Shown: one piece after another, positions 4,258 to 61,943 of the stretch
Layout of the letters: every line of letters begins with the position of its first letter
Numbering within the stretch: the first letter of the stretch is position 1
NCBI GenBank assembly: GCA_023255625.1
Contig: JAHFLF010000003.1
Span: 2,105-66,104, forward strand
Direction: 5' to 3'
DNA: 64,000 nt
From: Candidatus Harrisonbacteria bacterium
GTDB lineage: Bacteria > Patescibacteriota > Minisyncoccia > UBA6257 > 1-14-0-10-44-23
Translations under genes and position numbers: made by a program
Notes under the pieces: model-generated
What the model was told of the DNA's origin: nothing
The model's input: only the letters and a program-made list of their open reading frames with translations
Databases searched by the model: none

Positions 4258-4352
4258 GATATATCGTGCTGGCGCTACCCGGGCACCACCAAACCCGGCG
4301 AACGACCACCAATTCCGGAGGATGTATTAGCTGAACTTGCCAATATTGATTA
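4258..4352. repeat. Direct repeat copy 2 (~80 bp) flanking the HEHEH gene; remnant encodes ...WRYPGTTKPGERPPIPEDVLAELANID* in frame 1
   Basis: ctggcgctacccgggcaccaccaaacccggcgaacgaccaccaattccggaggatgtattagctgaacttgccaatattgattaa. It is out of frame with the upstream gene, so it is not part of it. Confidence 0.7.
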
Positions 4353-4371
4353 AAAGGAATATGCTAAATTT

Positions 4372-4560
4372 AAACTCCAACAAGGAAAAAGTGGCAGCGT
4401 CGGTCCGACCGATGCGGTCTTCCACGCTTCGCTCCCATGCGAAGTCACTTCATCCCTAGTATCGCAAGGCGACCACTTCCTTGCGAGCGTAGACGGATCG
4501 GCGGACGGAACTCGGAAGCCGAAAGCCAATTCCGCGCACGCAGTTTTCCTTGTTGGAGCT
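4372..4560. repeat. GC-rich ~190-bp structured element closed by a perfect 15-bp inverted repeat (CTCCAACAAGGAAAA ... TTTTCCTTGTTGGAG) with internal hairpins
   Basis: The terminal inverted repeat is read directly from the sequence. Internal hairpins: CTTCGC/GCGAAG, TCGCAAGG/CCTTGCGA, CCGACCGATGCGG. It lies immediately upstream of ychF. Confidence 0.5.
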
Positions 4561-4627
4561 CTTCAGCATGTCGGGCTCGCGCACAACCTTTCTAATCAAT
4601 TGTGTTGCCGCGAGCCCTTACTTCATT

Positions 4628-19240: not shown

Positions 19241-19596
19241 ACAGTGCTTGAATGATCAGTCTAGTATGTCATCTTTCAACGAGAACCCATATATATGGCG
19301 CTCGTTGAACGACAACATCATTAGCGTCCCGCCAAAGGCGGGACTAGTAGTTAGTTGCGATGGCATATTAGTACGTCTCGGCTACACACCTTACGGTGCT
19401 TACACCTAACGCCTATCAACGTAGTAGTCTTCTACGAACCATCAAACATCCTTTCGAATATTCTGGTATCTAATCCTGGAGTTGGCTTCGTGCTTAGATG
19501 CTTTCAGCGCTTATCCATTCCGAACGTAGCTACCCGGCACGTCTACTTGGTAGTAGAGCCGGTACACCAGCGGTTCGTTCAATCCGGTCCTCTCGT

Positions 19597-20117
19597 CACG
19601 ATATTCTTGCGAATACTTTTCCCCTCTCACGAGGAGCGTAGACTATATCTTGACCCACCCTAAATCGCTTTTGCGACCGGGTAAAGGGTCTCGGCATCTT
19701 ACAAATGCAGCCCTGTCTGCGAAACATATCGCAAACTTTCTGGAACTACATAAGTCCGCCCGTTATCCCGCTGTTAGCGGAACCGGAACAAGTCGTTACG
19801 GGGTCAAGCGCGAAATACGCGCAAGTTGAAAGTTTATCAAGTTTATAAAGTTATAAAGTAGAAACGGAAACCCGCATCCACTTGATGAACTTTACAAACT
19901 TTCAACTTTACAAACTTGCGTGCTTTGCACGCCGACTTCCCACGGTATTGTCTTATTACTTTTCTGGTCCTCAAGCTTGTACGCCTTTGGCGTATAAATT
20001 GTACCACGCGTTTGAGGACTAACTCTCGCTTGGTTATCAACAGACCAGACCGTCATAAGATTCCACCGTTATTAGCCGAATTTTCATCACGCATTACTGC
20101 ATGAAGTAGCAAACTTT
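19597..20117 (-). ncRNA. group I intron A (ORF-less, ~521 nt) in the 23S sarcin-ricin loop region (between U2656 and A2657, E. coli numbering, inferred)
   Basis: P7/P9.0 core AAGATATAGTCTACGC on the minus strand. Removing 19597-20117 reconstitutes CCTAGT|ACGAGAGGACCGG. It contains a copy of the AAGTT composite palindrome (19806-19933). Confidence 0.6.
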
Positions 20118-20315
20118 ACTAGGATCGACTCTCCTCCGATACCATACGCCTGCAACAGATAGAGACCAACCTGTCTCACGACGGTTTGAACCCAGCTCAC
20201 GTGCCCTTTTAATTGGCGAACAGACAAACGCTTGGGAGCTTCTTCACCCCCGCGCTAGGGCGAGCCGACATCGAGGTGCCGAGCGTTGCCGTCGATAGGA
20301 ACTCTCGAGCAACAC

Positions 20316-20350
<35 letters not shown>

Positions 20351-20705
20351 TCTTTGTGCTTTCTATAAAGCAACATCGGGTCACTAAGTTCTGCTTTCGC
20401 ATCGGCGCGACTTGTAGGTCTTGCCGTTAAGCCAGCATGTGCCTTTACACGTTCAGCCCGATTTCCATCCGGGCCAAGCTGACCTTAATAAACTCCTCCG
20501 CTACTCTTTAGGCTTGTTGTTAGTTGCATGCATCATTTCTGTGCATCGCTTCATGTCGCCATGAAGGTCAGACTATATCTTCAGCATATCCGGATATGAT
20601 TGCTGTTTGGCGTATAGTCGTTGAGGACTCTCTTATTGAAGCTGAAAGAAGGAGTGAAATAAATAATTAATACATAATAACTACTTCACGTCCACGCGAT
20701 GCGTG

Positions 20706-20781
20706 TGGTGGGCTCTGAAGGACTTAAACCTCCGACCTCCTGGATTTCAACCAGGTGCTCTAGCAGCTGAGCTAAGAGCCC
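20706..20781 (-). ncRNA. tRNA-like structure 1 inside intron B: full cloverleaf with a Phe(GAA) anticodon arm and encoded CCA, but the D/T tertiary invariants are altered
   Basis: Minus strand: GGGCTCT TA GCTC AGCTGCTA GAGC A CCTGG TTGAAAT CCAGG AGGTC GGAGG TTTAAGT CCTTC AGAGCCC A CCA. C19 and U56 replace G19/C56. T-loop is TTTAAGT. Confidence 0.5.
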
Positions 20782-20797
20782 ACTTGTTCGCATTTTT

Positions 20798-20889
20798 TGG
20801 AGCGGGCGAGAGGATTCGAACCTCTACCCTATCGCCGCCAAAGCCCTTGCGGGCTCAAGGGGCTTGCCCTGCCGTTAGACCACGCCCGC
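20798..20889 (-). ncRNA. tRNA-like structure 2 inside intron B: class II-like (long extra arm) with canonical acceptor, D and T arms but an aberrant anticodon region
   Basis: Minus strand: GCGGGCG TG GTC TAACGGCAG GGC A AGCCCCTTGAGCCCGCAAGGGCT ... AGAGG TTCGAAT CCTCT CGCCCGC T CCA. U8, GG in the D-loop and T-loop TTCGAAT are present. No 5-bp stem plus 7-nt anticodon loop can be drawn. A GCAA-tetraloop hairpin AGCCC/GGGCT occupies the region. Confidence 0.4.
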
Positions 20890-21407
20890 TCCGTTACAAC
20901 ATTGCTTGCGATTTTCCTCCTTCTTTCAACTTCAATAAGGTTGCCTGCTGATTGTCCGCATCGATCTTGAATTTTTACCCTTTTCGACAAGAGGTATCAA
21001 GATATGCCCGGATATTCCAGCATATAGCCAAATTTTTTACCGTTAACCCCCATATGCGCAGAGGCACATATATACTTGAGGATAACGCCCCATTAAAACT
21101 GCCCACCAGGCACTGTCCCGCGACGTTTTTGCCGTCGAGGTTAGAATCTAAAATTTTACAGATGGCTGTTTCATTGTTGGATCCATGTCTCCCGAAAGAG
21201 ACACTTCAAATCCTCGCCACTACGCTACGCAGTAAAATCCTAGAGCCAATACCAAGCTACAGTAAAGCTCCCGGGGTCTTTTCGTCTTGCTGCAGGTACC
21301 CAGCGTCTTCACTGGACTCGCATTTTCACCGAGCTCTTCGTTGAGACAGTTCTCCACTCGTTACACGATTCGTGCGCTTCGGAACTTACCCGAAAAGGAA
21401 TTGCGCT

Positions 21408-21956
21408 CACTATTGTTACTATCCGCCAGCTTGCGGACGGATGAATATTTCTATTCACCTCTATGCATTACTGCACAGGTCGGACTATATCTTCATATAT
21501 GCGTTATCAGGCGCATACTGTTCGGCGTGTAGTCTCTACAGGGTCATATTGAAGCTGAAAGAAGGATGCGAAGTGTATCGCTACTCCTTCGTATCCGCGC
21601 GGAAGGCGCGAAAGAGAGGTGACGGGTCTCATGTATTTACCCGCATTGCAATAAAGACTCGTAGTCTTTAATCTTGAGGCAACCGGCTCGCCCCGAATTG
21701 CACTGCAGCCCTTGCGGGTTCTGCAGGAAGCAGCCATACCATCCGAAGGCAACAGGCTCGAGTAGTCTGGTGGACGCTGTGCGCCACTCGAATCTCTTCC
21801 GCCTACATCGGAGCTAACCCTTGCTTCTCACACCCCTCTCATTTTCCTTCTTTCAACTTCAATAGACTTCCCTCGGTATTGTCCAAGACAAAATTTCCTT
21901 TCCTATATTCTTGGATGTTCACCGATATAGCCAAATTTTACTAAGGCAAGCAATTC
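21408..21956 (-). ncRNA. group I intron C (ORF-less, ~549 nt) at 23S helix 69, site L1917 (inferred)
   Basis: P7 3'/P9.0 AAGATATAGTCCGACC plus P9 hairpins GGTGAATAGAAATATTCATCC and TCCGCAAGCTGGCGGA. Removing the intron joins ...TAACTATAATCGTTCTAAGGT|AGCGCAATTCC, which matches the E. coli sequence CUAAGGU|AGCGAAAUUCC. Confidence 0.65.
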
Positions 21957-22004
21957 ACCTTAGAACGATTATAGTTATCGCTGACATTGACGAGGGCTTC
22001 GGGC

Positions 22005-22130
22005 AGTGCGCATGCCCTGCGCACAAGTCGCAAGTTTATCAAGTTCTTCAAGCTCGAAAGTAGAAACCGGAATTCGGCCTTACTTGATAAACTTGATGAA
22101 CTTTTTACTTGACGAACTGTGTGCAGAGCA
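22005..22130. repeat. AAGTT composite palindromic element, copy in the 23S helix 68 region
   Basis: GCGCACAAGTCGCAAGTTTATCAAGTTCTTCAAG ... CTTGATAAACTTGATGAACTTTTTACTTGACGAACTGTGTGC, flanked by small GCGCA..TGCGC hairpins. It replaces about 25 nt of E. coli sequence with about 135 nt. Confidence 0.6.
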
Positions 22131-22261
22131 CACACCCACCGTTAACCTTCTCGCATCGGTCACGTGTCACCCCCTATACATCCTCTTGCGAGTTAGCAGG
22201 GAGTTGTGTTTTTGATAAACAGTCGGCAGAGATACTTTCGCTGCGGCCCCGCGCGCACAGC

Positions 22262-22391
22262 GCGCAAGTCACAAGTTTATCAAGTTCATAAAGTTATAAA
22301 GTAGAAACGGGAATCGCTTCCGGTATTCACTTGATGAACTTTACGAACTTTCAACTTGATGAACTGCGTGCTGCGCACGCCGGGCAGGCCT
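22262..22391. repeat. AAGTT composite palindromic element, copy replacing 23S helix 63; about 85% identical to the copy inside intron A
   Basis: gcgcgcacagcgcgc + caagtcacaagtttatcaagttcataaagttataaagtagaaac...cacttgatgaactttacgaactttcaacttgatgaactg + cgtgctgcgcacgcc. Confidence 0.6.
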
Positions 22392-23595
22392 TATTGCTAA
22401 CTTACGGCCGCTTTTTTGCCGAGTTCCTTAACGAAGATTCACTCGTTCCCCTGAGGATACTCTCCTCACCCACCAGTGTCGGTTTACGGTACGATGCACA
22501 TGTTCTAAACTTAGAAGTTTTTCTTGGAAGGCTATTCTGCTGTATTAGTCTTGGAAAACCAAAACCTTATCGGAACGCGCGCACTACTACATTAAAGTAA
22601 GCTACCCGGATTTACCTGGATAACAGTGCTTATCGTCCTAAACGCCAAACCATTAAGGCGCACAGCTCTATGTCCTCCGTCACTCCATCGCACAAACATG
22701 CGCGGGCCGGAATATTAACCGGCTTCCCATTAGCTACGGTTCTCACCATTGCCTTAGGATCGCCTAACCCGCGGTTGATTGCCATTGCCGCGGAAACCTT
22801 GGATTTTCGGGGTACGCGTTTCTCACGCGTATTGTGGTTACTTGTGCCAACATTCTCTCTTCCAAACGCTCCACGGGCTCTCACGAGTCCCGCTTCACAG
22901 CTATATTCGTCCTTCAACGAATGATTGGAATGCTCTCCTACCGCGCCACCTGATAAATCAAGTGACACCCGCAATTTCGGTACTATGTTTAGCCCCGGTA
23001 CATTTTCGGCGCAGTCGCCCTCGAATAGTGAGTTGTTACACACTCTTTAAAGGATGGCTACCTCTAAGCCAACCTCCTATCTGTCTATGGGAAACTACTA
23101 CCTTTAACACTTAACATAGATTTAGGGACCTTAATTTGCGATCTGGGCTCTTCCCCTCGCGACCATGGAGCTTTGCCCCCACAGTCTAACTAGCTAGACG
23201 TTTTATGTGAGTATTCGGAGTTTAACTGAAATGTCGCCCTTTCGGGCTGTACACCTCAACTAGTAGCTCTACCCCTCACATGATGTCTCTAGCCGCTAGT
23301 CCGAAAACTATTTCGGAGAGAACCAGCTATTACCAAGCTCGATTAGCTTTTCACTTCTTATCCCAAGTCATCCCAGGGTTTTGCACAACCCACGAGTTCG
23401 GTCCTCCATAGGATTTTACTCCTACTTCAACCTGCTCAGGACAAGCTCGCCTTGGCTTCGGGTCTTATGTATGCCGCTTATTGTCGCGCTATTAACACTC
23501 GGTTTCCCTACGCCTCCACCGCCGAAGCGGCTTAGACTAATGCGACACACATAAACTCGTTGGCTCATTCTTCAATAGGCACATAGTCACCCCAC

Positions 23596-23735
23596 GCGCA
23601 CCTCACTGCTGTGACGTGCGCAATTTTCAATTACCAATTTTCAATTTTCAAACAATTTTGAAATTAATCAATTGTTTAGAAATTAGAAATTAGAAATTAG
23701 AAATTGCGCACTCTCACGACAGTGAGATGCGCGCT
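23596..23735. repeat. Insertion in 23S helix 25 region: AT-rich cassette (same family as 7519-7622 and 57325-57435) closed by GC-rich inverted repeats
   Basis: gcgcacctcactgctgtgacgtgcgc | aattttcaattaccaattttcaattttcaaacaattttgaaattaatcaattgtttagaaattagaaattagaaattagaaatt | gcgcactctcacgacagtgagatgcgcgc. Confidence 0.6.
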
Positions 23736-23798
23736 GGGGGCTCCTATTCATTGTAAGCGTACGGTTTCAGGTACTATTTCACCGCCCTTACCGGGCTG

Positions 23799-23839
<41 letters not shown>

Positions 23840-23935
23840 TGAAGTGTATTTAGCCTTACCGGATAGTACCGGTATGTTCCCGCATAGTTTATTTGCCACG
23901 CGGTACTCTAGAAATCTCATATTGCTACAAGACCA

Positions 23936-24195
23936 GTCCTGTATGTCACATATGCCGCGAAATGCGGAAGCATTAAAATTGTCGAGACCGCGACGCGAGT
24001 GGCGAGACATATGGCTATGCCATAAGCTCGACGCTCGCAACAAAGGTATCGACAATTTTAATGCTTTGACGGGCTAATTTTTGCCTGATTCTTTGTTGCT
24101 TGTCGTAGCCATAGCTAAAGCTATTGTCTACTCCGCGCGCCTAGAATCATGCCAAAATTCGCACCGCCGCATTCGTGTCATATGTGACATACAGG
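23936..24195. repeat. ~260-375-nt insertion in 23S domain I (between E. coli positions ~200 and ~460) with nested perfect inverted repeats
   Basis: Outer 17-bp inverted repeat: cctgtatgtcacatatg (23936-23952) / catatgtgacatacagg (24179-24195). Inner 16-bp inverted repeat: gcattaaaattgtcga (23967-23982) / tcgacaattttaatgc (24046-24061). There is an rRNA-length excess of about 375 nt here. Confidence 0.6.
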
Positions 24196-24694
24196 ACAAA
24201 AAACGAGAGTCAGAACTGTTTTCGCATACTGGGCTATCACCATCTTTGGCGCGTCTTTCCAGGCGCTTCTGCTAACAGACTGTTTTTTAACTCTCTTTTT
24301 ACAAATCACGCAGCAGCCGTAAAGCTGCTCCGTGAAAAGTAAAAGTGTTTTTCTCTAAACCCCCAAAAGATTTATTGCTAAATCCCTCGAGTTTGGGCTC
24401 TTCCGTTTTCGCTCGCCGCTACTAACGGAATACAATTTGTATCTTTTCCTCTGGTTACTGAGATGTTTCACTTCACCAGGTTGACGAACGCATCACTTAT
24501 GTATGCGAACTATGTCGGGTTACGACATAAGGTTTCCCCATTCGGAAATCTCCGGATCACAGGTTGCTAACACCTCCCCGAAGCTTATCGCAGCTACGCC
24601 ACGTCCTTCATCGCCACTTCATGCCAAGGCATCCACCGTACGCCCTTTAACGCTCTGACGCATGTCAGAGCTCACTAACCACATAATGCTCAAG

Positions 24695-24812
24695 CGCGCA
24701 TAGCGCGCAAGTAACAAGTGGCACAAGTGAAAACTGGTAAACAAGTGAATGCAAATCCACTTGCCTACTCGTGTCTACTTGTTTCTACTTGCGAACTGCG
24801 TGCTACGCACGC
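24695..24812. repeat. AAGTT composite palindromic element, copy in the 23S leader
   Basis: gcgcgcatagcgcgc aagtaacaagtggcacaagtgaaaactggtaaacaagtgaatgcaaatccacttgcctactcgtgtctacttgtttctacttgcgaactg cgtgctacgcacgcc. Confidence 0.55.
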
Positions 24813-25384
24813 CTGAGACTAGACTGATCATTCAAGCACTGCACCGCCTTCGCGGTGAAGTCGCCCGTCTTGCTTTCGCAAAACTTTGTTTACTCCGACG
24901 GCAAGTCGAAGCGAGCTATCTATTTTCAAATGCGACTAAGAAAAAAGAATCGCTCGATTTTGTCATAATTTCAAACATGGATATACAGTAAATACGATGT
25001 TTTACTTTCACGACTCCGGCACGCTTGCCCTAACAAGCGCATAGCCGGCTCTATATATAGAAGACACATTACTACTTAAGCGCCGCCCTACGGACGACTG
25101 GTAATAATGTCTTTTCTATACTGGATCTGTAAAGGTGCAACTTCACTTATCCAGTCCTACAAGCAACCAATGTTTCTTACTAGCCAGCGAAGGAATTACC
25201 CGCGCCGTTGGCGGGGTCAATTTCTTGGTAGAAATTGAAAACCGCTCTTTTCGAGCGGCTACGAAACCAACTCAAACTTTTCCTACTTGTCCGCCTCAGG
25301 CGGAATCGGAAAAGTTCAATGGTTTTTGTGCCGCAGGAATTAAGATAAAATTTAACATTTAGTAGCTAGTGACTGATGGGAAAG

Positions 25385-25412
25385 AGTATAGCAAAGACCA
25401 AAAAACTGTCAA
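25385..25412 (-). promoter_or_regulatory. Candidate rRNA operon promoter (TTGACA - 16 nt - TATACT), about 750 nt upstream of the mature 23S 5' end
   Basis: Minus strand TTGACAGTTTTTTGGTCTTTGCTATACT; near-consensus -35 and -10. Confidence 0.5.
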
Positions 25413-26116
25413 GTAGAACTTATGCACTTGACGAAAAAATAGAACTGCATGAGAATATAGATTCGATCCAATCCTACTCGAGTTCAAGGGATCGGGCGGA
25501 GTATCTACCGCCCTACCCGCGCGCAGAAACTGTGCGCCAAATTGAGCGAGTTAAGGGCGATGGTTAGCCACGAATCCAGCTCGTAGTGCGTCGAGCACCG
25601 AGCATCATGTAAGCCGACGCGGATAGCCGGCACCCCAACGAGGAGCTCACTCGGTAAGGCATGATGAAGTGGAAAGGCACTCGACAATCGAGAACCATCG
25701 CCCTAGGAAAAGGATCTCCGCGTCAATAACGCGGGTGCAGAGAAGCATGCGGCTTCCACGAACTCCACCCCCCTAACCGCATTGTGGATTTTGCACTCGC
25801 GCCAATCTCATGCTCACCCCAGCTTCGGCAAGGGTGGGCATGTCTATTTTTATACACTGGCAGTAATTTATTTTCAGAGTATAATAAAATAGCAAATCTC
25901 GAGCTGGTGGAGGGAAGCACAGCTGTCACACAAAAGTCCTGCCCGGACACCCGCGACAGCGCTTGGCTCATGCAGGTACGGACGCCGAGTTTCAGCTCAA
26001 AAACCGGTCGGCCCACACGCAACCTCTCTTCCGAGGCGCCTCTGCACTTCACCAGCTCCCCGCCTTACCGGACGATGTTCACTCCCGAACATCGTCCGTT
26101 CTCTATTCCAATTAAT

Positions 26117-40553: not shown

Positions 40554-40685
40554 AGTGTAAATTTAAATAAAATAATAATTTAATTTAAGAGTAGCAGACT
40601 ATCAAAAGCTGGCAAGTAACCTTGTGTCGGACGGCTTTAACAAAAACCCGCGCGGATCCGCTCTAAAATCCAAAGTTCTTTTTTG

Positions 40686-40766
40686 TGCTCGGGAGAGGAC
40701 TCGAACCTCCACGCCTTGCGGCGCTACCACCTCAAGGTAGTGCGTCTGCCATTTCGCCACCCGAGC
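40686..40766 (-). tRNA. tRNA-Leu (anticodon GAG)
   Basis: GCTCGGG TG GCG AAATGGCAGA CGC A CTACC TTGAGGT GGTAG CGCCGCAAGGCGT GGAGG TTCGAGT CCTCT CCCGAGC A. Long variable arm. Confidence 0.85.
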
Positions 40767-47736: not shown

Positions 47737-47737
47737 G

Positions 47738-47811
47738 TGCGCGTGCCCTGATTCGAACAGGGTACCTCGTCGATGTCAACGACGCGCTCTAACCAAGTGA
47801 GCTACACGCGC
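47738..47811 (-). tRNA. tRNA-Val (anticodon GAC)
   Basis: GCGCGTG TA GCTC ACTTGGTTA GAGC G CGTCG TTGACAT CGACG AGGTA CCCTG TTCGAAT CAGGG CACGCGC A. Confidence 0.85.
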
Positions 47812-54766: not shown

Positions 54767-54934
54767 GCGAGAAATAATTTAATGGTAAAACAAAACCGCC
54801 TAACAGTGGCGGTTTCTAAACAATAACATAAGAAGCCGCCAAAAACTATGAGGCGACTCGCGAGGTAAATGAAGACCAGGTTGTGATGTGAGCGTTGTGA
54901 AGCATAGGATTAGTATAGCATAAGTTTGTCTTTG

Positions 54935-55006
54935 TGCGCGTGGGAGGGATCGAACCTCCGGCCTTTTCATTATCAGTGAAATGCTCTACCACTGAGCTAC
55001 ACGCGC
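54935..55006 (-). tRNA. tRNA-Ile (anticodon GAT)
   Basis: GCGCGTG TA GCTC AGTGGTA GAGC A TTTCA CTGATAA TGAAA AGGCC GGAGG TTCGATC CCTCC CACGCGC A. Confidence 0.85.
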
Positions 55007-61856: not shown

Positions 61857-61940
61857 GCCCGGGTGGCGGAACTGGCAGACGCGATGGATTCAAGACCCAT
61901 TGGCCGAAAGGCCTTGAGAGTTCAACTCTCTCCCCGGGCA
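61857..61940 (+). tRNA. tRNA-Leu (anticodon CAA)
   Basis: GCCCGGG TG GCG GAACTGGCAGA CGC G ATGGA TTCAAGA CCCAT TGGCCGAAAGGCCT GAGAG TTCAACT CTCTC CCCGGGC A. One A.C mismatch closes the anticodon stem. Confidence 0.75.
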
Positions 61941-61943
61941 CAC

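Follow-up and report, generated by a model that had tools for sequence, protein, structure and literature searches.

Group I introns are known to harbour homing-endonuclease genes in their peripheral loops and, in rare cases, a second ribozyme. In twin-ribozyme introns, P2 or P6 of the splicing ribozyme houses the branching ribozyme GIR1 along with an endonuclease gene, and the nuclear rRNA introns of Naegleria have a second functional RNA in P6. The intron described here (intron B), which interrupts a patescibacterial 23S rRNA gene, resembles twin-ribozyme introns in that a second, independently folding RNA occupies a peripheral helix, but its cargo is tRNA-shaped and comprises neither a GIR1 match nor an endonuclease gene. 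With the homing-endonuclease introns of bacterial and organellar 23S rRNA genes (L1931-type, with a LAGLIDADG ORF in a peripheral loop) it shares the ribozyme family, the host gene and the position of the cargo, and both are distributed patchily among close relatives, as mobile elements are. It differs from them in that the cargo is a tRNA-shaped non-coding RNA without an ORF and that a long, invariant stem closes the slot.

Bacterial rRNA operons contain spacer tRNAs (tRNA-Ile and tRNA-Ala between 16S and 23S) that are released by RNase III and RNase P, as in the classic layout of the E. coli locus L002. Like spacer tRNAs, the units in intron B are apparently promoterless, co-transcribed with the rRNA and flanked by a long stem, and spacer tRNAs served as the model for the release proposed below; unlike spacer tRNAs, they lie inside a putatively self-splicing intron within the 23S coding sequence, and one of the two cannot decode. 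Judged by rRNA processing stems and intervening sequences, the stem of 27–29 bp is long enough for an RNase III-type substrate. In rRNA intervening sequences, RNase III cuts a long double-stranded stem and the insert is discarded without ligation; the stem of intron B, located inside an intron and not in mature rRNA, is a candidate for such a cut.

Genes for tRNAs within group I introns have been predicted in organelles, for example tRNA-Ile in atp6-i1 of Ophiostoma minus and tRNA-Arg in cox1-1281 (PMC7902536), and the initial annotation, which could not place tRNA-like modules inside an rRNA intron in any known class, was overstated in this respect. These cases are mitochondrial, lie mostly in protein-coding genes with a LAGLIDADG ORF alongside, and are tool predictions without structural or functional study (PMC7902536). 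Intron B shares the nesting of tRNA in a group I intron with them, but it is bacterial, located in rRNA and devoid of an ORF, and it holds a tandem pair including a remodelled mimic within a conserved stem. Our literature searches found no example of tRNA units within a bacterial rRNA intron. In Patescibacteria and cyanobacteria, group I introns interrupt the anticodon loop of tRNA genes, and such introns are exceptionally numerous in CPR genomes (PMC13011429). Phylum and partners are the same in intron B, whereas the nesting is reversed, with complete tRNA-shaped units inside the intron. A further connection between group I introns and tRNA-binding proteins is provided by introns that depend on aminoacyl-tRNA synthetases for splicing, such as bI4 and aI4 with yeast mitochondrial LeuRS, or those requiring the Neurospora TyrRS CYT-18 (PMC7600831). 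As the second unit of intron B (TL2) is nearest to tRNA-Leu, a similar link is conceivable, which we regard as a lead only; the known synthetase-dependent introns, unlike intron B, contain no literal cloverleaf.

Our analysis confirmed an intron with two tRNA-shaped units in a stem-closed slot, which suggests non-coding RNA as a possible cargo of bacterial rRNA introns. A structured non-coding RNA in a peripheral slot would be a new kind of intron cargo, here composed of a near-canonical tRNA and an engineered-looking mimic in a stem that is more strictly conserved than the ribozyme. It would also be a concrete case in which to ask what CPR bacteria, whose genomes are tiny but whose rRNA genes are rich in introns, gain from these introns or how they put up with them, whether introns can move and express tRNA genes, and whether literal tRNA shapes can bring RNase P or synthetases to a ribozyme.

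The 23S rRNA gene and its intron at L2262

Intron B is located in the 23S rRNA gene (19350..24659, minus strand, ~5.3 kb; RF02541, 1867 bits) of a metagenome-assembled genome from the Patescibacteria (CPR). The window, i.e. the whole stretch of DNA that was analyzed, has a length of 64 kb. Homologs of the FtsW and MetRS encoded in it are named Harrisonbacteria, Paceibacterota and Patescibacteria, which defined the host taxonomy and, together with the dense bacterial ORFs, ruled out an organellar origin. No 16S gene is present in the 64-kb window, so that the 23S gene appears to be unlinked from 16S. At L032 and L033, no rRNA was found next to MetRS, which is followed by TatD there. The 23S gene is split by three group I introns (A, B and C) and additionally contains several expansion or hairpin insertions. 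Its 3' end at ~19350 was read from the alignment with E. coli and from the sequence; the RF02541 match ends at 20042 because intron A interrupts it. As this third intron sits within the sarcin-ricin loop, the 23S gene is mis-delimited by annotation.

Intron B comprises 566 nt (20513..21078, minus strand) and is inserted at approximately position 2261/2262 of E. coli 23S rRNA (L2262), as determined with RF00028 and exon alignment. The RF00028 (Intron_gpI) match covers 20549-21075 on the minus strand within the LSU_rRNA_bacteria match and reaches 54.9 bits (E = 2.6e-12; gathering cut-off 50 bits) with an alignment over the full length of the model. The ends were set by alignment to E. coli 23S rRNA and by relatives with uninterrupted exons, which places the last base of the 5' exon at a U (21079) and the last base of the intron at a G (20513). 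Removal of intron B yields continuous conserved rRNA in the E. coli alignment, and six relatives are uninterrupted across 21079/20512.

An internal guide sequence, GGGGU (21046..21050, minus strand), was read from the sequence and pairs with the end of the 5' exon, AUCCU, to form P1 with a U·G at the splice site. Two compact introns at the same 23S site in other CPR genomes (L004 and L007) combine the exon UGCCU with the guide GGGCG, so that two P1 pairs are altered on both sides relative to intron B. RNAalifold analysis of introns B, C, L004 and L007 recovered P3, P4, P5, P6, P8 and P9 with compensatory changes in 18 of the 40 predicted pairs, and intron B conforms to this pattern; the P7 strands GACUAUA and UAUAGUC were directly read from it. 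These features identify intron B as a group I intron with an intact core that is predicted to self-splice. The canonical core that the initial annotation had claimed is thus backed by the model score and by covarying helices, whereas the boundaries proposed there, 20513-21076, had to be corrected to 20513-21078.

Two tRNA-shaped units in intron B

Both units are encoded on the rRNA strand. The tRNA-Phe(GAA) unit of 76 nt (20706..20781, minus strand) was detected by ARAGORN at 20706-20781 and by RF00005 at 20709-20781 with 67.0 bits (E = 1.6e-13, cut-off 29 bits) and zero non-canonical pairs, a score within the range of the host tRNAs (46.6–78.9 bits). Its four stems (7/4/5/5 bp) are intact, the 7-nt anticodon loop UUGAAAU has U33 and A37, the bases G34-A35-A36, A73 and U20 are retained, and CCA is encoded. 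The D loop, AGCUGCUA, contains C19 and the T loop, UUUAAGU, contains U56. While G18 and U55 are present, the nearly universal tertiary elbow pair G19:C56 is lost; GG and C56 are retained in each of the four host tRNAs within the window. The Phe cloverleaf had been described with exactly these properties (GAA anticodon, encoded CCA, C19 and U56). ARAGORN found no other tRNA-Phe gene within the 64-kb window.

TL2 (20798..20889, minus strand; RF00005 and ARAGORN) is a class II tRNA-like unit of 92 nt that ends with UCCA. RF00005 assigned 41.9 bits to positions 20801-20889 (E = 1.3e-06), against the same cut-off of 29, so that both units score well above noise in the covariance-model check that had been recommended. 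TL2 has a perfect 7-bp acceptor stem, a perfect T arm with UUCGAAU, and a D arm with GG. In place of the anticodon and variable arms, it has one 11-bp rod capped by GCAA, in which the UUGAG bases are buried. The cloverleaf with this rod reaches -40.7 kcal/mol, compared with -28.4 kcal/mol for a cloverleaf with a 13-nt loop. With a single GCAA-capped rod formed from both its anticodon and its variable arm, TL2 cannot decode, and we treat it as tRNA-like and not as a tRNA gene since the 7-nt anticodon loop is missing. The three arms, the GCAA hairpin and the lack of a standard anticodon arm had all been recognized before; the D stem, called perfect there, includes two G·U pairs. TL2 is a remodelled class II tRNA that comes nearest to tRNA-Leu, with 59 of 82 positions matching the host tRNA-Leu(GAG). 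ARAGORN labelled it 'Lys CTT' at 20798-20889, but this label was rejected because tRNA-Lys(CTT) would require an anticodon loop of 13 nt and an anticodon stem with two A-C mismatches. A tRNA-Sec-like nature, to which a 10-bp acceptor helix might point, was likewise dropped: TL2 lacks a UCA anticodon and a properly formed arm, and its three additional acceptor pairs are contributed by the leader.

This leader, GGA (20890-20892), pairs with U73-C74-C75 and thereby extends the acceptor helix of TL2 to 10 bp. Between TL2 and the Phe unit lies a spacer of 16 nt, AAAAAUGCGAACAAGU (20782..20797, minus strand), the final GU of which pairs with A73-C74 of the Phe unit. Pairing of the 5' leaders with positions 73-75 thus gives acceptor helices of 9–10 bp in both units and buries the CCA. 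In the 3' linker of the cargo (20654..20705, minus strand), a hairpin CACGC-AUC-GCGUG is followed by an AU-rich stretch that leads into the stem. The whole insert folds with -140 kcal/mol (z = -9.2 versus shuffles), and both cloverleaves are kept in the minimum-energy fold. We found no convincing internal promoter in the cargo of intron B. CCA is encoded in both units, but in none of the four host tRNA genes, which sets the units apart from the usual genes of this host.

The longest stop-free stretch in the cargo corresponds to 83 aa, and the gene caller predicted no gene there. A decayed endonuclease gene was rejected as source of the cargo, since neither tblastx nor blastn detected a significant match to the LAGLIDADG ORFs of L026, L027 and L035. 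Between 19900 and 24800, only tRNA, Intron_gpI and spurious miRNA families of Rfam matched at E ≤ 0.1, and a twin-ribozyme arrangement was dismissed for want of a match to GIR1 or another ribozyme family at this threshold. It appears that tRNA-derived RNA, and not a homing-endonuclease gene, fills the slot that is closed by the 27–29-bp stem in intron B. Phages and plasmids showed only generic tRNA-Phe similarity of ~75%, and exact-pattern scans of viral contigs retrieved neither unit, so that a donor of this kind was not supported. No further genome with tRNA cargo was found among the DNA scanned and the contigs of relatives examined.

The P6a stem and its contents

The cargo is bounded by the P6a stem, the 5' arm of which (20911..20939, minus strand) includes the invariant 20-nt core UAUUGAAGUUGAAAGAAGGA at 20918-20937, with a Shine-Dalgarno-like AAGGAGG inside, while the 3' arm (20632..20660, minus strand) includes the invariant core UCCUUCUUUCAGCUUCAAUA at 20634-20653. 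The arms have 29 nt each and are 90% complementary as DNA; RNAfold predicts that they form a 27-bp helix enclosing 264 nt. The inverted repeat reported around the tRNA-like units is therefore real, but it is not perfect as DNA due to one C/T difference, and its coordinates were a few bases off. In rRNA-sense RNA, this difference between the arms results in a conserved U·G wobble, with the G contributed by UCCUUCUUUCAGCUUCAAUA. Pairing along the stem is thus complete in rRNA-sense RNA alone, which points to a role at the RNA level.

The same stem closes a different insert in intron C, as had been observed from the outset. Intron C (21408..21956, minus strand, 549 nt; RF00028, 48.9 bits) is a paralogous group I intron inserted at AAGGU/AGCG, the classical L1931 site. 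Its identical 20-nt P6a core (21845-21864 and 21547-21566, minus strand) encloses a structured RNA of 278 nt (21567-21844, minus strand; fold z = -5.8), which showed no similarity to the endonuclease genes of relatives. A known RNA family, a degenerate tRNA or GIR1 were rejected as identities of this RNA, because it had no Rfam match at E ≤ 10. In one relative (L013/L014), a conserved structured RNA of the intron C type occupies the P6a slot of an L2593 intron. The 5' core is identical in intron C and the L014 intron and the 3' core in intron C and L013, so that three introns, each inserted at a different 23S site, agree at all 40 positions of the 2×20-nt stem core, whereas their ribozyme cores are just 62–78% identical. 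The only significant similarity between the cargoes of introns B and C is the GCAA hairpin GA[G/A]CCCGCAAGGGCT (reached by 7 of 500 shuffles); that between their 3' linkers is not significant (261 of 1000 shuffles).

When up to four mismatches were allowed, the stem motif was detected only in introns B, C and L013/L014 and nowhere outside introns in the window and the relatives, and a MITE-like or TIR-bounded dispersed cassette was rejected on this basis. Among 17 metagenome matches and one viral match to the motif, only L013 and L014 were real and the others were chance matches in coding DNA. No target-site duplication can be seen, as the sequences on either side carry on the P6 helix.

In L004, P6a is a short hairpin capped by GUAA at the exact position of the intron B cargo, and in L007 a short hairpin with a non-GNRA loop. 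The L1931 intron of L027 has a LAGLIDADG_1 ORF in the P6 loop, and the endonuclease-bearing relatives are without the long invariant stem. Together with the 278-nt RNA in intron C and its counterpart in L013/L014, these contents bear out the earlier suggestion of a modular insertion site and mark P6a as the cargo slot of this family of mobile 23S introns in Patescibacteria. Two outcomes had been named as evidence against genuine tRNA-like modules: related genomes with the same intron but no inserts do exist, whereas covariance-model scores below noise were not observed.

The L2262 site is empty in six relatives, one of them with a flanking exon that is 96% identical, indicating that intron B is a recent gain and that those lineages consequently get their tRNA-Phe from an ordinary gene. 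Intron turnover in the clade is fast at L1931, L2262, L2500, L2593 and L2656. The contigs of the closest relatives by FtsW (L028 and L030) begin inside or after the 23S gene, and L2262 lies outside their coverage.

Possible fates of the cargo

The cargo may be a source of tRNA-Phe that is released along with a helper, a mimic that has a structural role or recruits proteins, or a relic. We infer, as a plausible but still somewhat doubtful explanation, that intron B could be a vehicle and expression site for non-coding RNA from which the units are processed out. Having no promoter of its own, the cargo would be transcribed within the pre-23S rRNA and would exit with the intron upon splicing at ...AUCCU/CCUAAAG, for which the expected junction is GGGCGUUAUCCU/CCUAAAGAGUAGC. 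The long stem would keep the two halves of the ribozyme together and insulate the core from the cargo. As with spacer tRNAs in ordinary rRNA operons, RNase P would then cleave each unit at G1 (20889 and 20781), perhaps preceded by a double-strand-specific cleavage within the stem. Trimming of the 3' ends would stop at the encoded CCA and leave a 76-nt tRNA-Phe and a stable 92-nt tRNA-like RNA. Bacterial RNase P recognizes the acceptor/T-arm minihelix and RCCA, and both units have these elements. A Phe unit that scores like the host tRNAs, the persistence of both cloverleaves in the fold and the missing promoter are consistent with release. On the other hand, TL2 is plainly not a tRNA, the loss of G19:C56 in the Phe unit is what a pseudogene or a mimic might show, and the paired leaders resemble closed structural helices and could hinder RNase P. 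The 64-kb window, a fraction of the genome, contains no gene for RNase III, the RNase P protein, RNase Z or the CCA-adding enzyme, an absence that carries no weight against the model.

Alternatively, and in our view rather unlikely, the units may be mimics that are never released and either form rigid, L-shaped domains at the periphery of the ribozyme or recruit tRNA-binding proteins. The GCAA-capped rod of TL2 could dock on a core helix, and LeuRS, PheRS or RNase P could be recruited as folding cofactors. An encoded CCA blocks RNase Z, as is known from B. subtilis, and its presence in the units but not in the host tRNA genes would fit a mimic, as would the closure of both acceptor helices by leader and trailer pairing with the CCA buried inside. 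The well-paired four-arm shape of TL2, which hides the anticodon bases and is 12 kcal/mol better than the standard cloverleaf, argues in the same direction, and so do the sharing of the GCAA hairpin as the sole significant similarity with the cargo of intron C and the closure of P6a in the compact L004 homolog by GUAA, which belongs to the same GYAA class. However, the other compact homolog, L007, does not have a GNRA loop at P6a, so that conserved docking of L6a is not established, and no receptor was identified. The Phe unit also retains the PheRS identity bases and a flawless anticodon loop of 7 nt, for which a scaffold would have no use, while the elbow pair used by elbow-binding partners is lost from it. 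Although LeuRS and TyrRS are documented splicing cofactors of group I introns, the LeuRS-dependent region of bI4 does not fold like tRNA-Leu (PMC7600831), and TL2 carries U73 where tRNA-Leu has A73.

Little probability also attaches, in our opinion, to a passive relic, in which recombination brought two tandem tRNA genes, or part of a tRNA cluster, into the slot, where they may have replaced a homing-endonuclease gene or an RNA of the intron C type and now decay without function. The intron would tolerate such an insert because P6a loops tolerate insertions. The missing anticodon arm of TL2 and the lost elbow pair of the Phe unit could be signs of decay, of which little would be visible yet in a recent, lineage-specific intron that is absent from six relatives. 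The fast turnover of introns in the clade, other small repeats scattered across this rRNA gene and the tRNAs predicted by tools in fungal mitochondrial group I introns (PMC7902536) are compatible with such a capture. Decay is difficult to reconcile with zero mismatches in any helix of either unit, with an insert far more stable than its shuffled controls and with a bounding stem that is fully conserved next to much more divergent cores. The rod of TL2 requires several coordinated pairs, which a simple deletion would not create, and a donor locus was not found.

A joint reading, to which we give a low probability, would regard the group I introns of this clade as vehicles for non-coding RNA in stem-bounded cassettes, with a tRNA-Phe supply coupled to rRNA and TL2 as a recruiting mimic. 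The invariant 20-bp stem may then be the recognition or processing site for interchangeable RNA cassettes in intron B, intron C and the L2593 intron, and rRNA transcription, splicing and the supply of tRNA-Phe, possibly from its only copy, may be coupled. TL2 may in this case be a purpose-built mimic through which the intron recruits an aminoacyl-tRNA synthetase or RNase P.

That assembly joined the tRNA pair to the intron via short repeats common to introns B and C is extremely improbable: although the inverted repeats recur in two introns 0.9 kb apart and the assembly of a relative breaks within the homologous insert (L013/L014), the repeats of 20–29 nt are much shorter than the k of 141 that the contig name gives for the assembler, the 27-bp helix runs on through the two cargo junctions and includes further pairs that only intron B has, and a second assembly from a different sample (L001, ENA ERZ27297344, contig k141_5146887) has the identical arrangement. 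This assembly differs from the window at 3 of 21,467 positions, none of them in intron B, and the chimeric assembly that had been considered as a possible refutation was thus not borne out. In genomes with this arrangement, standard pipelines will put a tRNA-Phe and a bogus 'tRNA-Lys' within the 23S gene.

The 23S rRNA gene and the ribozyme of intron B

The window has a GC content of about 48% and is a bacterial contig dense in genes. Among the names carried by the homologs of its FtsW and MetRS are Candidatus Harrisonbacteria, Paceibacterota, Liptonbacteria and Patescibacteria group, which identifies the host as a member of the CPR/Patescibacteria. The 23S rRNA gene is located on the minus strand and followed by a 5S gene; Rfam detected no 16S gene within the window. 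Alignment to the E. coli 23S rRNA gave about 2.4 kb of extra sequence, consisting of three group I introns and several expansions. Intron C (21956..21408, minus strand, 549 nt) occupies the classical L1931 site (sites follow E. coli numbering), intron B (21078..20513, minus strand, 566 nt) follows E. coli position ~2261/2262, and intron A (20117..19597, minus strand, 521 nt) follows U2656, splitting the sarcin-ricin loop between AGU and ACGAGAGG. Each is preceded by U and ends with G. Intron A had a weak Rfam score (22.1 bits), and its ends were set cleanly by the uninterrupted exon of relatives. It also cuts the Rfam 23S match short at 20042, whereas the actual 3' end of the gene lies near 19350.

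The initial annotation of a group I intron in the 23S rRNA gene was borne out by an Intron_gpI match of 54.9 bits (cut-off 50) at 20549-21075. Scanning species-representative genomes for the P7 motif and the 3' exon identified same-site introns in three CPR or unclassified MAGs: L004 (260 nt), L007 (266 nt) and L006, whose intron ends were not delimited. The introns of L004 and L007 are plainly homologous to intron B, with near-identity in P3, P4, the P4'-P6 junction, P7 and P9. A consensus fold of four sequences recovered P3, P4, P5, P6, P8 and P9, with compensatory changes in 18 of 40 predicted pairs. The guide GGGGU of intron B fits its own exon AUCCU, and L004 and L007 pair the guide GGGCG with the exon UGCCU. 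With a covarying core and an exon-matched guide, the ribozyme looks functional and fitted to the rRNA of this host. As a ribozyme, intron B is a standard member of a known family.

The tRNA-like cargo and the P6a slot

The novelty of intron B lies in its RNA cargo, in the tRNA mimic and in an invariant stem common to different cargos. The two tandem tRNA-like units proposed earlier were both recovered by Rfam (cut-off 29) and ARAGORN, the Phe unit (20781..20706, minus strand) with 67.0 bits and the second unit, TL2 (20889..20798, minus strand), with 41.9 bits. The acceptor, D, anticodon and T stems of the Phe unit are all perfect, its 7-nt anticodon loop contains U33, G34-A35-A36 and A37, and U20, A73 and an encoded CCA are present. 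Almost all bacterial tRNAs have a G19:C56 pair, as do all four host tRNAs in the window; the Phe unit has C19 and U56 instead, as first noticed. CCA is encoded in both units but is missing from all four host tRNA genes (40685-40766, 47737-47811, 54934-55006 and 61857-61941), in which C-A follows the discriminator A. The leader pairs with positions 73-75 in both units, giving acceptor helices of 10 bp in TL2 and 9 bp in the Phe unit.

In TL2, the acceptor stem is perfect, the D arm carries GG and the T arm is canonical. The description of this unit as lacking an anticodon arm but bearing a GCAA cap agrees with the folding results: a standard cloverleaf would require a 13-nt anticodon loop, and folding of the region into one GCAA-capped 11-bp rod is 12 kcal/mol better. 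TL2 most closely resembles class II tRNA-Leu: 59 of 82 positions match the host tRNA-Leu(GAG), with which TL2 has the D region GUGG...GGCAG as well as the T arm in common, and CUUGAG is retained. In our reading, TL2 is a class II tRNA that has been remodelled and would be unable to decode.

Both units are enclosed, as initially suggested, by an inverted repeat, with arms of 29 nt (20632-20660 and 20911-20939) that in the rRNA-sense RNA form a 27-bp helix with one U.G wobble. This helix extends P6a. The folding energy of stem and cargo together is -140 kcal/mol, which is better than that of shuffled sequences by 9.2 standard deviations; the minimum-energy structure contains both cloverleaves.

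P6a is the cargo slot of this intron family, and its occupant varies among homologous introns. In L004, a short GUAA-capped hairpin sits at the exact start point of the long stem of intron B, and L007 has a short hairpin with a non-GNRA loop. The P6 loop is filled by a LAGLIDADG_1 ORF in L027, a related L1931 intron, and an ORF of 87 aa is called at this position in L026. In intron C, the same 20-nt stem core surrounds an unrelated 278-nt RNA (21567-21844, minus strand), which folds well (z = -5.8) and has no Rfam match at E<=10. The proposal that the repeat encloses a different, non-tRNA insert in intron C holds, and the suggested modular insertion site is supported by the comparison of homologous introns. 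A metagenome scan for the stem motif additionally identified L013 and L014, two contigs from one organism with 23S exon pieces mostly 82-88% identical to the window (70-95% over all pieces). In this organism L1931 and L2262 are empty, and a same-stem intron with C-type cargo (L014 1-66 and L013 2727-2879) is present at ~L2593. Pairing in the basal helix of this cargo, judged by eye, is apparently kept through two-sided changes, and the C-type cargo may represent an undescribed structured RNA class.

The stem core (20634-20653, 20918-20937, 21547-21566 and 21845-21864 in the window; L013 2707-2726 and L014 67-86) is identical at 40/40 positions, wobble included, across introns B and C and the L013/L014 intron, and the ribozyme cores of the same introns are 62-78% identical. 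Against a background identity of about 75%, such agreement corresponds to a ~1e-5 event per pair. A search allowing up to four mismatches gave no further occurrence of the motif in the window or in the relatives. Since one arm contains the Shine-Dalgarno-like AAGGAG(G) and the other the anti-Shine-Dalgarno-like CUCCUUCUUUC, the stem could be descended from a hairpin in which the ribosome-binding site of an endonuclease gene, since lost, was hidden. Such an origin would not explain its continued invariance.

Fate and origin of the cargo

Encoded on the sense strand, the cargo is part of an intron whose removal is required for ribosome function, and the helix bounding the cargo would keep the ribozyme halves together. 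It would be expressed via rRNA transcription, leave together with the intron and then be processed in the manner of spacer tRNAs. RNase P would cut at both G1 positions, possibly after RNase III-type cleavage of the stem, and trimming would take the 3' ends back to CCA, yielding tRNA-Phe and a stable tRNA-like RNA. We favor this route tentatively and consider it, as a whole, somewhat short of probable.

It is rather unlikely, but conceivable, that the units remain in place as structural or protein-recruiting mimics. The engineered-looking rod of TL2, the GCAA hairpin common to the cargos of introns B and C and the closed acceptor helices of both units are in line with this function, and aminoacyl-tRNA synthetases are known to act as group I splicing cofactors (PMC7600831). 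Comparably doubtful is a captured, decaying tRNA pair: the loss of the elbow pair and of an anticodon arm and the youth of the intron point to decay, whereas the absence of mismatches from the helices and the conservation of the stem speak against this reading. The 183.7-kb metagenome contig ENA ERZ27297344 k141_5146887 matches the window; this second assembly differs from the window at 3 of 21,467 compared positions, none within the feature, and an assembly artefact is very improbable.

Six relatives lack an intron at L2262 (L014, L026, L034, L035, L038 and L039), among them L034, with a flanking exon 96% identical to that of the window, and L039, from an organism found in the same samples. 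Occupancy of L1931, L2500, L2593 and L2656 also varies from genome to genome. Intron B is therefore a recent gain in a fast-turnover clade, and the compared genes show rapid rRNA intron turnover within one CPR clade. The tRNA cargo is known from one species only, in two or three assemblies; no tRNA was present inside the 23S genes of the relatives examined, no donor was found in phage, plasmid and viral collections, and no internal promoter stands out in the cargo. In the literature searched, no tRNA or tRNA-like cargo was described for a bacterial rRNA intron. PMC7902536 briefly mentions predicted tRNA genes within group I introns of fungal mitochondria. CPR tRNA genes with group I introns inside are well described (PMC13011429); the nesting in those CPR genes is the reverse of that in intron B.

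Further variation in and around the 23S rRNA gene

The set of occupied intron sites in the 23S gene is different in each of L014, L026-L028, L034, L035, L038 and L039, with or without LAGLIDADG ORFs, and L038 has no intron at L1931, L2262, L2500, L2593 or L2656. Between MetRS and the 23S start lie 1.46 kb with small called ORFs only (24660-26116). In L032 and L033, MetRS is followed by a ~1-kb gap and TatD without rRNA, so either the rRNA locus has moved or synteny is broken here.

A ~260-nt expansion after E. coli position ~348 (23935-24199) is single-copy in the window and occurs in 2-4 copies at differing places in the 23S genes of relatives (L014rc 1113-1537, 1865-2131, 2776-2937 and 4300-4569; L034 2132-2390 and 2886-3138; L035 109-357 and 3364-3544); it is a repeated insertion element. 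Palindromic hairpins of ~110 nt (GCGCGCA..GCGCGCAAGT..AAGTTTATCAAGT...) form a family inserted within intron A and at expansion sites of the 23S gene (19808-19916, 22010-22118 and 22251-22365); a partial copy immediately precedes the 23S gene (24694-24728), and L014 contains related copies. The element appears to be a small mobile hairpin colonising the rRNA gene. At the helix-25 site, an AT-rich, intervening-sequence-like hairpin with (AATTTCT)n repeats (23599-23735) gives several spurious plant microRNA matches in Rfam.
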